DNA from: an uncultured bacterium
Lineage (GTDB): Bacteria; Desulfobacterota; Deferrimicrobia; J040
Assembly: GCA_964429585.1 (NCBI GenBank)
Contig: CAYSCN010000001.1
Span: forward strand, 49,809 to 113,808
Length of the DNA stretch: 64,000 bases
Direction: 5' to 3'
The translations under genes were made by a program, and so were the position numbers. Under the pieces are notes generated by a model that saw only the letters and a program-made list of their open reading frames with translations, did no database searches and was not told the origin of the DNA. The number at the start of each line of letters is the position of its first letter. The first letter of the stretch is position 1. Positions 52,865 to 57,715 of this stretch are shown piece after piece.

Positions 52865-54655
52865 TCACCGGCTTGTATTCAGCTCCTCTATGAGAGATTC
52901 GATTTTTTCGAGAGCTCGAGTCAGTTTCTCTTCTTCGCTTTTCGTTACCTCTGCCCGCTCGAGTCTTTTTTTCATTGCCGCATCCATTGCTCCCCGGGTC
53001 GATTTGAGTGCCTCTTCCATCCTGCTTGCGAGAGCTGAGGTGAACTTTCTGAAGGTGTTGTCGATGTTTTGCAGCGTGACCCATCTTAGGTTTTCCACGT
53101 TGTGAAGAACCAGTTCTTCCACGTGTTTCATCATTCTCTTTTTGACCCTTCCTTTTCTGATACCCGGTGGCAGAAGCGCGTCTGCAGCCCCTTCTGGGAC
53201 GAAGGATAGGCTGGCGCTCCATTTGTGGGTAACCCAGTAAGGCTCCTTTTCTACGACGAATCTGGAAGCTCCTTCGAGAGTTCTATATGGGATGTCGAAG
53301 AGTTCTGCGGCTGTTTTTCTTATCGAGCCTATGAGCTCGTCGGCTTTCTGTTCAAATGGGGTGAGGGCTTCTGTTATTCGGTCTTCCATCTTTCGGGACA
53401 TCTCTCCCAAGAGTCTCTCGAAATATCCCGGAATTGACTCAGATATGGCATCTCTTACCCTTTTATCGAGGTTTTTCTCGCTTCCGCACCTTGCAATCGT
53501 TTCGTCCACGACTCTTTCGAGGAACTCCCTCGCTTCGCTCCTCAGCGATTCGGCCTGTTTTTCGAGGAACTCCACGGTCCTTTTTCTTTCTCCGCTGATC
53601 ATGTCGTCGAAGGTTATCTTTTGCCTTTCGATTTCTTTGAGTTTTTCGTCGAAGATTCTGGTTTTTTCCTCCAGCTCTTCTATCGGAAGGAGATACGATT
53701 TGATGAGGAGATTCAGCCTCATCTGAATGTCCAGCATGACGTCGTGCGCTTTCCTCGAAATGGCTTCCACGAAAACACGTTCCTTCTCGCGCGCGAGGAA
53801 TTCTACCAGGAAGCTCTCAACGATTCCCATTCCGCTTTTTTCCCACAGAATTTCGTCCCCTGCCTGTCTGGCTTTGAGCCCGTCTCTCGCCGAGGTCAGG
53901 AAGATCTGGACGTCGGAGACACCAGCCTGATCGCGCAAAACGTCGGTTATGAACTCTTTGATCTGAGATCGTTCATCTTCATCAAGGTAGTCCACCTTGT
54001 TTATCACGAAAAAGAGCCTCGAAACCTTCTTTTTGACTTCCTTGAGGAATTCTATTTCCACTTCGGTTATTGGAGGATCGGCTGATACCATGAAGAGTGC
54101 CGCATCGCACTCGGCGAGGAAGTTCAGAGTCGCTTCTGTGTTGTGCTTGAAAGTGGAACCGATTCCTGGAGTGTCGATCAACACCACGCTCCTTCCGAGT
54201 ATCGAGGAAGGGATCGCTACTTCCACCTGAGAGACGGCTTTTTCGTTTTTAGGGTTTTTCTCTTCCGTGACGTATTCTTCGAGAACCTGCCTGGCTTCGT
54301 CGGGGGAAGATGCGTCGATTCTTTCCGTTTTCCCGTTCTGAAATGTGACAGAGATTTCCAGGCGGTCCGAGGTCTTGAGAAAAGTGGGGATGGCTGTGAG
54401 CGGCACGACTGATGACGGGAGGACCTTTGCACCTATGAGAGCGTTCAAGAACGTGCTTTTCCCTCTTTTGAACTGACCGAGGACGGCCAGGTGAAACCTC
54501 TCATTCTCGAGACGGGTTTTGAGAGAATCGAGCATCTTTCTTGTGCCTTCCAGTTCATCCCCGAAGATGGTCGCGAGAGCCACGCCTTCCTCTATTATTT
54601 CTTTCAGCTTTTCGCCGGTCAGACCGGGTGAACTTTTCAGTCTCGTCTCGCTCAT
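52865..54655 (-). CDS. Bacterial dynamin-like GTPase
   Basis: G1 GQFKRGKST, G3 DTPG, G4 NKVD, long helical C-terminal region. Confidence 0.85.
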   Translation of the reverse strand: MSETRLKSSPGLTGEKLKEIIEEGVALATIFGDELEGTRKMLDSLKTRLENERFHLAVLGQFKRGKSTFLNALIGAKVLPSSVVPLTAIPTFLKTSDRLEISVTFQNGKTERIDASSPDEARQVLEEYVTEEKNPKNEKAVSQVEVAIPSSILGRSVVLIDTPGIGSTFKHNTEATLNFLAECDAALFMVSADPPITEVEIEFLKEVKKKVSRLFFVINKVDYLDEDERSQIKEFITDVLRDQAGVSDVQIFLTSARDGLKARQAGDEILWEKSGMGIVESFLVEFLAREKERVFVEAISRKAHDVMLDIQMRLNLLIKSYLLPIEELEEKTRIFDEKLKEIERQKITFDDMISGERKRTVEFLEKQAESLRSEAREFLERVVDETIARCGSEKNLDKRVRDAISESIPGYFERLLGEMSRKMEDRITEALTPFEQKADELIGSIRKTAAELFDIPYRTLEGASRFVVEKEPYWVTHKWSASLSFVPEGAADALLPPGIRKGRVKKRMMKHVEELVLHNVENLRWVTLQNIDNTFRKFTSALASRMEEALKSTRGAMDAAMKKRLERAEVTKSEEEKLTRALEKIESLIEELNTSR

Positions 54656-54664
54656 TTTTACTCC

Positions 54665-55090
54665 TCACTCGGATAAACCCTCGAAAATTCGAATCACCTT
54701 TTCCGCCCATTCCTCCTGGTTCGGGATGAGGTTTTCGTCGGGAGGCCTCGGGAACCAGTGGGGACATCCCCCGCATAGCTTCCAGGTTTCTTTTATTACT
54801 TTTTTCCCGGTCAATTTGAAGAACCACCGGCATGAGAACGTGTATATAGGATGGGAGTTGCTGCGGAACCTGACCGGTATTAAATACAGGCAAGGTCTTT
54901 TTTCGGTGGATAGTTCGTCTGGGATCGAGCAGGGAGAACACCAGCGATCGATAAGTTCTCCGGGATCTGGTGACGAATCCAGATGCCTGGGGCCGGCTGC
55001 CTTGCAGTGGAGATTCCAGATGGTTCCATTGCTCCATATTTCTCCGAAGGGGCAGCTGATATGGGTGAGTTCATCGTTTTTGAGGAGCAT
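54665..55090 (-). CDS. Cys-rich hypothetical protein, first gene under the fluoride riboswitch
   Basis: 141 aa, 8 Cys including CSPC and CGGC; AGGAG SD lies in the terminator stem; 9 bp from the dynamin start. Confidence 0.7.
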   Translation of the reverse strand: MLLKNDELTHISCPFGEIWSNGTIWNLHCKAAGPRHLDSSPDPGELIDRWCSPCSIPDELSTEKRPCLYLIPVRFRSNSHPIYTFSCRWFFKLTGKKVIKETWKLCGGCPHWFPRPPDENLIPNQEEWAEKVIRIFEGLSE

Positions 55091-55124
55091 AAAAAAACTC
55101 CTGCCACTGCAAAAGTGCAGGAGT
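55091..55124 (-). terminator. Riboswitch expression platform (intrinsic terminator)
   Basis: ACTCCTG-CAC...GTG-G-CAGGAGT then TTTTTT directly before the ATG. Confidence 0.85.
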
Positions 55125-55164
55125 CATCAGCCCTGCCGGGCGGTTAGAGGCGGACTCCATCGCC
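55117..55164 (-). ncRNA. Fluoride (crcB) riboswitch aptamer
   Basis: GGCGATGGAGTCCGCC-TCTAACC-GCCC-GGCA-GGGC-TGATGACTCCTGC: P1 GGCG/CGCC, pseudoknot GGAGU/ACUCC, conserved GAUG and UGAUG. Confidence 0.92.
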
Positions 55165-55173
55165 TTTTGAAAA

Positions 55174-55203
55174 ATTATATGGACGGGTGCACTTTTGAGT
55201 CAA
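55174..55203 (-). promoter_or_regulatory. sigma70 promoter feeding the riboswitch
   Basis: TTGACT-18 nt-TATAAT; predicted TSS a few nt before the aptamer. Confidence 0.75.
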
Positions 55204-55291: not shown

Positions 55292-57715
55292 TCATTTGCC
55301 TCGTGAAGGACCTGCTTTCTCCATGCTCGGGACGATCGCCAGGTGATTGGTGAAGTTGGACCTTTCGTCGATGTCGAGCGTGACGTTTCTGTATTCTCCC
55401 TTCAGCCACAGTGGGAACTGATCCCTGTAGTGCTCCTCGAAGTAGTATCCCGATTGACCGGTGGTTATCACGACTCTGGCTCTGTCCGCCTGCGCTGGTG
55501 ATACGACGAGCCTGAACGAAGGACCCACGGCGGCGGTGAAGTCGCTCCCGTGAGCAAACTCCATCTTCCATACGGTTCTTCCGCTCCCCGGCGCTTTTGC
55601 TGGACCTATGTTGAAGAACTTCCGAAAATACCATTTCTTGCCGAACGGGTGCCTCATCACCACCCGGTGGAGCTCTCCCCACTTCCAGGAGCTGAGGTCG
55701 TCCCCGAACTTTTCCCTGAGGAAGTCGATGGTTTCTGCGAAGCTCTTTTTCACCACGTCCTCGATGGTTTCCCGCCTGTCCCTGGTGTTTACGTCGTCGA
55801 ACCACCGGGAGTCGGGTTTGTCGAACATCAGGCGAGTCAGGGAGAGCACCGGCACCCTGAGAGTTCGGCTGAATATCCGGTAACCATCGGGGCCCAGTTC
55901 ATCGCCGAAGGTGTTTTTCAGGACTTCTTCGTAGAGAACCTCGAATATCGTCGCGCCGATGCTGTCTACGCTGAAGTCGCCATTCCATTTCTCGAGCTGC
56001 TTCAGAGCTTCGCTCCAGAGAGGGTTCTTGGGTTCTGTCCCCTCGAGGAGTTTCAAGAATAGGGCAACCTCTCTTTCCGCGCCGGCCATCTTCGTGTCGG
56101 TCTGGAGATCGATGAGCTCATCCAGGGAAAATTTTTCTTTCGATTCGAGGAAGGAGATTATTCTCTTTCCCCTTGCCGGGGGTTCGTAAACAGAGGAGAT
56201 GTAAGGCTTGCTTCCGGGCGGCAAAGGTGGAAAATTGGCTGTGACGATGAAACCTTCCGGTGGGTCGATGGTTCGAGGGTTCTCTCTGAAGGGGAGATAT
56301 CCTTTCCAGTCGTATTTACCGGTTTCCCCTGGAACGGGAATGGGGGGGTGGTTTTTTTCTCTTACCGGTATCCTGCCTGCGAGAACGTAGCCTATGTGTC
56401 CGTCTGCCGTGGCAAACACGACGTTCTGCGCAGGAAACTGGAAATAGGAAAGCGCCTTCACCACATCGGAGACGCTCTTTGCTGAGTTGAGCAGCAAAAA
56501 CGAGCGAAGGTGGTCGCCTGTGGCGTCAAACCCCGTCCATCTGACTGCGAATTCGCCATCAATTCCGCTGAATATCGGAGTCATGATGGGACCGTGAACC
56601 GTCTTTCTGAGGATCAATGATTCCTCGGTGCCGCCTCTGACCGGTATGGTCGATTCTTTCGATTCCACGTTGAGCTTCTTTACACCGTGTCGGTAAGTTC
56701 CATCGCTGGATATCTTTTCCAGGTAAAGATCCAGGTCGTCCATCATGACGTTGGTGAAACCCCAAGCCACGTAGCGGTTGAAGCCTATTATTACGAACGG
56801 TGCTCCAGGAAAGGAGAATCCGTAGACGTCCAGTTCGGGCGAGACCAGGTGATTTTCGAACCAGACGGATGGAGCGGTGAGAGGAAGGTGCGGATCGTTG
56901 AAAAGATATGGTTTTCCGTCATCGACCCTGGAACCGGATATGACCCATGAATTGGAGCCTCCAGATATCGGGAAAAATGGAAATGAGAGAACTACATCGA
57001 GAATGTTTCTCAGTTTTGATAAGGAGTTTTTCGAAAGCCGCGGGACGGTCCCTTCACGCAGGATCGAGATCCCGTATATATCCTTCCCGTATGGGTTGAT
57101 GTCCCGGAAGAGTTTCTCTCCCGCTTTTGCGAGAACTGTGTAATACGCGAGCTCCTCCAACCACTGCGCGAGGCCGAAGCCTTTGAGGAGTGAAAGCAGC
57201 ATGATGTCTTTCCCGGTGAACGGTTCTGGTTTGTAGAAAAGTATCCTCGCCTCTGGCGGTGGTTTTTTCATCGCCTTCATTGCATCGTTTACCCCCGCGA
57301 CGTATCGGTCGACGAGAATTTTGAGATCGGGGGCGAGCTGGAGATACATTTCTTCCGCCTTTTCGACGAACGCGAGGGATCGGAAGAACCGATCGATTGG
57401 AAGAGCGTCTCCCCCGTATATCTCGGAGAGCCTGCCAGAGGCGAGCCGTCTTTCCGTATCCATCTGAAAGAGTCGTTCCTGAGCGTGCACGTATCCCTGG
57501 GAGTATATGAGGTCTCCCATGTTTTCGGCCACGATGTGGACGACTCCCCACCTGTCTCTGTATATGTGCACTGGAGCCTCGACGCGGCCTATCACCGCTC
57601 CTTCTCTTTTGGGAAGGCTCGATCGAAAAATGCTGGAGCATTGTACGAGCAACAGACTCGTTAAGGTGAAGAAAAGAATTATCCCCGTAACTCGTCGTTT
57701 TGCGGAAGAGATCAC
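55292..57715 (-). CDS. Penicillin acylase family Ntn-hydrolase
   Basis: N-terminal TM, IYRDRWGVVHI, QERLFQMD, GGSNSW (catalytic Ser), NDPHL. Confidence 0.9.
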   Translation of the reverse strand: MISSAKRRVTGIILFFTLTSLLLVQCSSIFRSSLPKREGAVIGRVEAPVHIYRDRWGVVHIVAENMGDLIYSQGYVHAQERLFQMDTERRLASGRLSEIYGGDALPIDRFFRSLAFVEKAEEMYLQLAPDLKILVDRYVAGVNDAMKAMKKPPPEARILFYKPEPFTGKDIMLLSLLKGFGLAQWLEELAYYTVLAKAGEKLFRDINPYGKDIYGISILREGTVPRLSKNSLSKLRNILDVVLSFPFFPISGGSNSWVISGSRVDDGKPYLFNDPHLPLTAPSVWFENHLVSPELDVYGFSFPGAPFVIIGFNRYVAWGFTNVMMDDLDLYLEKISSDGTYRHGVKKLNVESKESTIPVRGGTEESLILRKTVHGPIMTPIFSGIDGEFAVRWTGFDATGDHLRSFLLLNSAKSVSDVVKALSYFQFPAQNVVFATADGHIGYVLAGRIPVREKNHPPIPVPGETGKYDWKGYLPFRENPRTIDPPEGFIVTANFPPLPPGSKPYISSVYEPPARGKRIISFLESKEKFSLDELIDLQTDTKMAGAEREVALFLKLLEGTEPKNPLWSEALKQLEKWNGDFSVDSIGATIFEVLYEEVLKNTFGDELGPDGYRIFSRTLRVPVLSLTRLMFDKPDSRWFDDVNTRDRRETIEDVVKKSFAETIDFLREKFGDDLSSWKWGELHRVVMRHPFGKKWYFRKFFNIGPAKAPGSGRTVWKMEFAHGSDFTAAVGPSFRLVVSPAQADRARVVITTGQSGYYFEEHYRDQFPLWLKGEYRNVTLDIDERSNFTNHLAIVPSMEKAGPSRGK

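Follow-up and report, generated by a model that had tools for sequence, protein, structure and literature searches.

The usual account of how bacteria respond to fluoride has two parts, export of the ion through CrcB or CLC-F and the provision of spare fluoride-sensitive enzymes. The function of bacterial and archaeal dynamin-like proteins (DLPs), on the other hand, is largely unknown and few of them have a defined physiological trigger; a mycobacterial member, IniA, mediates membrane fission and drug tolerance. The RNA element that heads fluoride operons, the crcB motif, has been described (PMC2864571, PMC7266159), its associated genes in the 2010 description being mutS, genes for K+ or Cl- transport and formate hydrogen lyase, and an extended operon of this kind is the FRM operon of E. 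cloacae, ppaC-uspA-eno-gpmA-crcB (PMC5533749). The locus considered here lies in a 64-kb stretch of DNA (64,000 nucleotides, hereafter the window) from an uncultured bacterium (contig CAYSCN010000001.1, assembly GCA_964429585.1), where a fluoride riboswitch stands ahead of two genes, one encoding a 141-amino-acid protein with eight cysteines (p141) and the other a DLP of 596 amino acids. This places a GTPase of the dynamin superfamily behind the switch, and the same pairing recurs throughout the organism's class and well beyond it.

All elements of the operon are on the minus strand, and coordinates are those of the window. The aptamer (55111..55173) consists of helices P1 and P3 and a pseudoknot, GGAGU/ACUCC, and comparison with the Rfam crcB model, the check proposed in the initial annotation of this DNA, returned a match to RF01734 over its full length, model positions 1-64 of 64, at 63.4 bits (gathering score 34, E = 3e-15); a covariance model built here (R1) gave 69.6 bits. 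The aptamer has the consensus nucleotide at all highly conserved RF01734 positions but one, the P1 loop being GUCCG rather than the consensus GUUCG. The pairing is conserved among relatives: across 35 members of the class and 13 pairs, 96.9% of cells are paired, a value reached by 0 of 500 shuffles, and compensatory changes are seen in four aptamer pairs, one of which belongs to the pseudoknot. Directly upstream is a sigma70-like promoter (55174..55203) made up of TTGACT (-35, 55203-55198), an 18-nt spacer and TATAAT (-10, 55179-55174), which has 11 of 12 consensus matches and would start transcription immediately 5′ of helix P1. Three promoter-like sites were found in the region and 3.0 were expected from shuffles, that is, there is no excess, and what argues for the operon promoter is therefore its position and quality alone.

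The 3′ part of the leader overlaps an intrinsic terminator that would serve as the expression platform (55091..55125), with a 5′ arm (55125-55114) that reads GACUCCUGCACU in the minimum-free-energy fold, a loop, a 3′ arm (55108-55096) and a U-run (55097-55091) that abuts the ATG of the p141 gene at 55090. The Shine-Dalgarno sequence of this gene, AGGAG (55098..55102), is inside the 3′ arm, 7 nt before the ATG, and the arrangement of a U-tract followed by an ATG is common to all six of the six homologous p141 leaders. The sequence ACUCC (55124-55120) is both the 3′ strand of the aptamer pseudoknot and part of the 5′ arm of the terminator, and because each structure needs this strand the two are mutually exclusive. 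The initial annotation had described a complete ON-switch here, and each of its elements, from the promoter and the canonical aptamer to the terminator that shares ACUCC, ends at the ATG and holds the Shine-Dalgarno sequence in its stem, was recovered in place. We read the leader as a combined transcriptional and translational fluoride ON switch, the response to fluoride being inferred from this architecture. Without fluoride, the strand ACUCCUGC would pair with GCAGGAGU to form a hairpin that stops transcription at the U-tract and masks the Shine-Dalgarno sequence; with fluoride in the cytoplasm, the pseudoknot would take ACUCC, the terminator would not form, and p141 and the DLP would be transcribed and translated. 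It is highly likely that fluoride activates the bicistronic operon in this manner, by stabilizing the pseudoknot.

The two genes under this switch were found as the initial annotation had them, the p141 gene first (54665..55090) and the DLP gene (52865..54655) 9 nt on, with the DLP's own Shine-Dalgarno sequence, GGAG (54661..54664), in the gap directly after the p141 stop codon. No exporter gene is part of the riboswitch-controlled transcription unit, and no crcB or CLC gene occurs within the window, as had been claimed; such genes are found elsewhere in the assembly (2.34 Mb in 68 contigs, 52% GC, rated 100% complete). Contig C30 carries the single CRCB-family gene, with a DUF190 gene after it, and contigs C38 and C3 carry the two CLC genes, each of which encodes about 600 amino acids. 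The genome contains exactly one match to RF01734, the one ahead of p141 and the DLP. A search upstream of the C30 crcB-DUF190 pair with our own covariance model and with filters off found no aptamer, so the idea of a hidden, degenerate aptamer ahead of the genome's crcB was rejected, and there is likewise no aptamer near either CLC gene. The length of the two CLC proteins and their C-terminal extension fit the CBS-domain type on reading their sequences, and for these reasons, together with their location on other contigs, they were rejected as riboswitch-linked CLC-F. As judged from this gene arrangement, the one fluoride riboswitch of the genome has p141 and the DLP under its control and no exporter, which upholds the central claim of the initial annotation.

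How general this arrangement is was assessed in 78 species genomes of the organism's GTDB class, with the open reading frames (ORFs) of relatives called by a simple script of our own. Fluoride aptamers are present in 55 of the 78 genomes, 76 aptamers in total, and there are 61 strong hits to the Pfam family Dynamin_N, 51 of which have an aptamer upstream of them on their own contig and strand, at no more than 2.7 kb in each case; most of the class DLPs that are not linked to an aptamer are located at contig ends. Counted by genome, the riboswitch is followed on its own strand by a Dynamin_N ORF at a distance of less than 3 kb in 50 of the 55 carriers. A DLP is present in 53 and absent from two of the genomes with a riboswitch, and present in four and absent from 19 of those without (Fisher p = 2.4e-12), whereas the corresponding counts for CrcB are 23 and 32 with a riboswitch and eight and 15 without (Fisher p = 0.62). 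Within the class, then, the presence of the riboswitch tracks the DLP and not CrcB. No CrcB was detectable in 32 of the 50 genomes with a riboswitch-DLP pair, including the single-contig complete genome G024; most of the class genomes are metagenome-assembled, so that absences of CrcB are of lower confidence, and the set includes one complete genome as well as several with a completeness of 98% or more. Nearly all of the DLP-bearing genomes of the class have no strong Dynamin_N hit apart from the riboswitch-controlled DLP, and because of this, and because genomes without the riboswitch are mostly without a DLP, the protein looks like a dedicated fluoride-response effector rather than a back-up. 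A CrcB gene was found in only 31 of the 78 genomes, and CrcB without a fluoride riboswitch in eight, seven of which also have no DLP and one of which (G047) has one.

The order of the genes behind the aptamer varies by genus. The order riboswitch, p141, DLP is found in the window's own family and in G014, G020, G028, G048 and G051. Other orders are riboswitch, DLP, H+-pyrophosphatase; riboswitch, CrcB, DUF190, DLP; and riboswitch, Na+/H+ exchanger, universal stress protein (USP), in some cases a p141-like gene, and DLP. The first of these three is seen in G024 (locus L057, G024:C1:1979700-1985200) and in other genomes of its genus, g7, where the gene after the DLP matches H_PPase at 605 bits; this membrane pyrophosphatase may be a fluoride-induced stand-in for a fluoride-sensitive soluble pyrophosphatase. 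Two loci resemble fluoride islands, L042 (G014:C15:1-18000) and L044 (G020:C1:1-18000), each with four aptamers within about 10 kb; in G020 there is also a fifth, located on a different contig. The genes driven by these aptamers encode two MutS-like ATPases, a HAD hydrolase, an MFS protein and a small TPR protein with an aptamer of its own, further a series Na+/H+ exchanger-USP-CrcB-DUF190 and, last, p141 and the DLP.

To look past the class, riboswitch-linked DLPs were aligned (A1), and a search with the alignment retrieved at least 574 confirmed relatives among 185,579 GTDB species, and the loci of the best 80 of these, which are 39-60% identical over nearly their full length, were searched with a covariance model made from 35 class aptamers. 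In 64 of the 80 an aptamer lies at most 400 nt upstream of the estimated DLP start on the coding strand, in another 10 it lies 470-3260 nt upstream on that strand, with the DLP as a later gene of the operon, and the other six, of which four are from Dehalococcoidia, one is from Chloroflexia and one lies at the end of a contig, have no aptamer. When 18 of the loci, among them two archaeal ones, a weak hit in Scalindua and four negatives, were checked with the Rfam model, the calls were upheld; two weak hits of our own model (L107, L097) are below the Rfam gathering score. The organisms among these best 80 belong to the Bacillota (Moorellaceae, Peptococcaceae), Atribacterota, Planctomycetota (including Scalindua), Acidobacteriota, Spirochaetota (Leptospira), Nitrospirota, Omnitrophota, Binatota and Chloroflexota, to several Thermodesulfobacteriota and, in 13 cases, to the Methanomicrobia, which are archaea. 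The riboswitch-DLP arrangement is also present in a metagenome-assembled genome labelled L. biflexa (L162). The initial annotation had asked for riboswitch-dynamin pairs to be counted across genomes, and with 50 of 55 in the class and 74 of the 80 best cross-phylum relatives the association is clearly not unique to this genome; the class counts and the 80 loci together also led us to reject chance adjacency. From these matches the DLP subfamily appears to be widespread and, in Methanomicrobia as well as in many phyla of bacteria, a near-obligate part of the regulon under fluoride riboswitches.

The company that the DLP keeps in the best 80 loci is that of a fluoride regulon: a Na+/H+ exchanger in 15, DUF190 in eight, a MutS-like pair in seven, CrcB and USP in six each and an enolase directly after the DLP in five, with DUF6062, a HEAT_2 protein, a small TPR protein and a prenyltransferase-like protein among the other neighbours. 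In the four Dehalococcoidia loci (L114, L132, L141 and L147), which have no aptamer upstream, the DLPs form one monophyletic branch. In L114 the DLP still adjoins a MutS-like pair, which is in divergent orientation, and a Cys-rich protein of about 245 amino acids with the motif WGFCQRH comes after the DLP in both L114 and L141.

The DLP of the window matches Dynamin_N at 107 bits (cut-off 27) over residues 56-220, with the G1 motif GQFKRGKS at residues 60-67, the G3 motif DTPG at 161-164 and the G4 motif NKVD at 219-222, and a long, probably helical C-terminal part follows the G domain. These three motifs, as well as VTE-x2-NP-x-N and DTPG-x-GS-x3-HNT, are invariant in alignment A1. In profile searches the nearest solved relatives are the BDLP of Nostoc (2J68, E = 3e-29) and the DLP1/DLP2 of C. 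jejuni (5OWV, E = 8e-25), the match to DLP1 reaching residue 437, and there are further matches to mitofusins and to M. smegmatis IniA (6J72, E = 1e-20, residues 38-329), the last of which ends at residue 329. Scores fall well below the cut-offs of the NCBIfam subfamilies (81.8 against 1600 bits for DynA, NF052648, and 24.5 against 325 for LeoA/HP0731, NF041922). Taken together, these profile comparisons identify the protein as a bona fide bacterial DLP that is outside every named NCBIfam DLP family.

Members of the riboswitch-linked subfamily are about 550-620 amino acids long. In a phylogeny made with FastTree only, the window's DLP groups with all of the cross-phylum relatives in an 81-sequence clade (SH-like support 96), and the DLPs of the class's other family form a second clade of 18 sequences (support 100); both clades are linked to the riboswitch. 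The same genome encodes a second, adjacent and canonical-looking DLP pair of 1075 and 599 amino acids (contig C35:4967-9994) with no fluoride aptamer, very distant in the tree from both riboswitch-linked clades. A third type of riboswitch-linked DLP occurs in G020 (L044:3089-4867 on contig C1); it has 592 amino acids and a Cys-rich C-terminal half (CPICGE..., CKACQ), and forms a long branch outside the two main clades.

The first gene of the operon had been called an orphan, a label that does not hold, since its product belongs to a small, uncharacterized but conserved family that is tied to fluoride operons. A word-based search of 5.8 billion proteins returned seven clusters of homologues, and HMMER with the family profile returned 76 homologues among 1.84 billion cluster representatives. 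The conserved motifs are C-x2-C-x-I-P, PCLYLVPxR, FSCRWF and C-G-G-C-P-H-W-F-P-R-P-P. All eight cysteines and His111 are invariant among the close members, and in a set of 51 members with 23-53% identity five cysteines (C51, C54, C67, C87, C109) show no variation and the other three (C13, C29, C106) are kept in at least 90%. This pattern suggests two Cys4-type metal sites, for zinc or an Fe-S cluster, and p141 is probably a two-site metal-binding protein. A spurious or orphan ORF was rejected on the grounds that homologues exist and that the eight cysteines, the motifs and the leader design are conserved.

An AlphaFold2 model of p141 made from the 51-sequence alignment is of high confidence (pLDDT 90.2, pTM 0.82), whereas one made from seven sequences only was poor (pLDDT 52.8). 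Foldseek with the former found no match in the PDB (best E = 1, TM at most 0.2) or in BFVD, the family profile has no sequence match in the PDB, and p141 belongs to no Pfam or NCBIfam family, with 0 of the 51 members matching any Pfam family at E <= 0.01. A known zinc finger was rejected on the same lack of Pfam matches in the 51 members and of PDB sequence matches, and DUF6062 (PF19538) because hhalign against a DUF6062-like alignment gave a probability of 0.2% and no member has a Pfam match.

The genomic context of p141 is always a fluoride operon in the homologues examined. Within the class, each p141 homologue is directly 3′ of a fluoride aptamer and 5′ of a DLP gene, and in G014, G020 and G028 its stop codon overlaps the DLP start by 4 nt. 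In Syntrophaceae the homologue is behind a second aptamer, and in metagenomic relatives the gene comes after an exchanger-USP pair or after a DLP and an aptamer.

What might a dynamin-like GTPase do for a cell that is exposed to fluoride? The layout of the operon, the families to which its RNA and its GTPase belong and the conserved linkage of the two are established by the results above, and what follows from here is interpretation. The explanation that we favour, and hold as a whole with moderate confidence, is a fluoride-activated operon that belongs to a widespread, riboswitch-linked group of DLPs, in which the DLP would have a role in membrane maintenance or in the remodelling suggested in the initial annotation, and p141 would be an accessory. 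Its more specific form, that the DLP is a stress-induced membrane-maintenance GTPase like IniA and p141 a lineage-specific, metal-binding accessory, is put forward tentatively, by analogy, and we would not rate it as an even bet. In this scheme the DLP would shield the cytoplasmic membrane or envelope, or mend it, while fluoride poisons phosphoryl-transfer metabolism, and p141, bound to zinc or an Fe-S cluster, would assist the DLP.

Several points weigh against this explanation. The membrane role, be it repair or remodelling, is a suggestion from homology to other bacterial DLPs, and we know of no mechanism by which fluoride would damage membranes directly. The DLP sequence contains no transmembrane helix, and its candidate membrane paddle, the aromatic segment EPYWVTHKWSASLSF at residues ~471-485, is a guess from sequence. 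The Dehalococcoidia branch of the DLP family has no riboswitch. In addition, p141 is missing from most DLP loci, and other lineages have other partners (DUF6062, HEAT, TPR); because most loci do without it, p141 cannot be essential to the core function of the DLP.

A bolder reading, which we consider doubtful, is that riboswitch-linked DLPs form an effector arm of the fluoride response in bacteria and archaea that is independent of exporters and would be the main riboswitch-controlled defence where CrcB is absent, with a GTPase that is perhaps gated by metal fluorides and with p141 as a metalloprotein of new fold. To the same doubtful degree, the DLP would in this case act alone or with a membrane pyrophosphatase or antiporter, as in G024 with its order riboswitch, DLP, H+-pyrophosphatase, and p141 would adapt the machine in one lineage. 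The gating component can also be taken by itself: GDP-MgF3- or GDP-AlF4- would lock the G-domain dimer, so that fluoride triggers a membrane tether or seal or switches on an effector at the protein level. AlF4-, BeF3- and MgF3- are generally known to mimic the gamma-phosphate in GDP-bound GTPases, and GDP-AlF4- to stabilize the G-domain dimers of the dynamin superfamily; both riboswitch-linked clades share the invariant motifs VTE-x2-NP-x-N-x-K and DTPG-x-GS-x3-HNT, and a protein-level response to fluoride would suit the 32 of 50 riboswitch-DLP genomes of the class in which CrcB is not detectable. However, the shared motifs are not tied to fluoride by evidence at the level of residues, such trapping is common to all P-loop GTPases and thus not specific to the family, aluminium and beryllium are scarce in the cytoplasm, and trapping by MgF3- requires millimolar fluoride. 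We regard gating of this sort as unlikely.

The neighbours of the DLP raise another option, in which it supports other membrane proteins by aiding the insertion, clustering or turnover of an antiporter, a membrane pyrophosphatase or CrcB, or sheds damaged membrane as vesicles, and does not repair the bilayer. Depending on the genus, the DLP does share its operon with Na_H_Exchanger-Usp, CrcB-DUF190 or H_PPase, and DLPs of the LeoA type are generally known to be linked to vesicle release, but no single membrane partner is conserved, and in the window's genome and many others the DLP is alone or has a soluble partner only, which makes such a support role quite improbable.

Compensation, by contrast, was among the ideas of the initial annotation: an extra GTPase would replace a housekeeping dynamin, or another GTPase, that fluoride inhibits. 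Fluoride regulons do hold spare fluoride-sensitive enzymes, namely enolase and pyrophosphatase (PMC5533749), an enolase follows the DLP in the five loci of the best 80 mentioned above, and contig C35 of this genome carries another DLP pair that is not linked to a riboswitch. That pair is extremely distant in the tree, however, nearly all DLP-bearing genomes of the class have just the riboswitch-controlled DLP as a strong Dynamin_N hit, and 19 of the 23 genomes without a riboswitch have no DLP at all. Since almost all carriers thus have no constitutive DLP to back up, compensation is disfavoured and strikes us as very unlikely. Anti-phage defence by an Eleos/LeoABC-like module with the riboswitch in an incidental position was rejected as very unlikely. 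The DLP does match the PADLOC models LeoBC (71.6 bits) and LeoA (60.3 bits), but these matches reflect what DLPs in general have in common; the operon has one DLP gene and no co-occurring LeoA and LeoBC pair, on which ground membership in Eleos (LeoABC) was rejected, p141 matches no defence model, and the linkage is conserved across phyla among fluoride-regulon genes and not in defence islands.

The genes on either side of the operon are of a different kind. Directly downstream of the DLP gene and on the same strand are intact hgcA and hgcB genes (51403-52768, minus strand), the former encoding 350 amino acids with the cap-helix motif NVWCSAGK (NCBIfam HgcA_corrinoid, 431 bits against a cut-off of 275) and the latter 97 amino acids (119.5 bits against 99). 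No terminator is predicted in the 96 nt that separate the stop codon of the DLP gene from the start of hgcA (52769-52864, minus strand). A promoter-like sequence with a TG extension, TCGACT-18-TAAAAT, is found there at 52807-52778, and transcription of the fluoride-controlled operon may run on into hgcAB. The relatives' loci examined gave no match to hgcA or hgcB, though for the three closest relatives the contigs extend only ~0-2 kb past the DLP. After hgcB comes an ORF of 126 amino acids (50934-51314, minus strand) with a hydrophobic segment, a Gly/His-rich tail (GGGGCGGHGKGGGHGSGGGHTGEHTGEH) and no Pfam match, possibly a metal-binding protein. On the other side, a gene of the penicillin amidase family (55292-57715, minus strand; 807 amino acids, 685 bits) ends 89 nt upstream of the -35 box of the operon and appears to be unrelated to it.

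The significance of the locus lies first in what it says about the fluoride response itself. Because the riboswitch in this class follows the DLP far more than CrcB, and because most carriers have no detectable CrcB, part of that response seems to be absent from the current picture. For DLPs, the riboswitch names a trigger, cytoplasmic fluoride, for one large subfamily, so that its function becomes directly testable. The first gene of the operon adds a conserved eight-cysteine family with a confidently predicted fold and with no structural or sequence relative in the libraries searched.

Among described systems, the canonical fluoride operons (crcB/Fluc, eriC-F/CLC-F and the FRM operon of E. 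cloacae) are the closest on the side of the RNA: they have the same aptamer family, the same ON logic and a terminator that overlaps the 3′ part of the aptamer, and several of their genes (antiporter, USP, CrcB-DUF190, MutS-like, enolase, pyrophosphatase) are also found beside relatives of the window's DLP. Unlike these operons, the window's riboswitch drives neither an exporter nor a fluoride-sensitive enzyme, and the genome's crcB is not under riboswitch control.

On the side of the protein, IniA and IniC of Mycobacterium (6J72/6J73) resemble the window's DLP in being stress-inducible, about 600 amino acids long and free of transmembrane helices, the induction of the DLP by fluoride being deduced from its riboswitch. 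They differ in that their inducers are cell-wall inhibitors that act via protein regulators (they are isoniazid-inducible), whereas the window's DLP has a fluoride riboswitch; moreover, it has p141 in place of an IniB-like partner, and the sequence relationship is distant. The BDLP of Nostoc punctiforme (2J68/2W6D) and the DLP1/DLP2 of C. jejuni (5OWV) have the same type of G domain, with a helical neck and trunk after it that the window's DLP may share, but they are not known to be regulated by fluoride, and C. jejuni uses a pair of DLPs where the window's operon has a single DLP and p141. The DUF6062, HEAT_2 and TPR partners seen in other lineages are, like p141, small, often Cys-rich and placed beside the same DLP family behind fluoride riboswitches, although p141 is unrelated to the DUF6062 partner.

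The initial annotation had called the riboswitch-dynamin link undescribed, and this agrees with the searchable full-text literature, in which no link of the fluoride riboswitch or crcB to a dynamin or dynamin-like GTPase was found, the gene list of Baker et al. 2012 being outside that scope; the matches that did turn up for GTPase, or for crcB together with dynamin, were irrelevant. Overall, the aptamer is a textbook fluoride riboswitch, and its pairing with a DLP is, within that literature, the new part. To the known systems this locus adds the p141 family, a case in which the sole riboswitch of a genome serves a DLP while crcB is left unregulated, and a class-wide pattern in which the riboswitch tracks the DLP and not CrcB.

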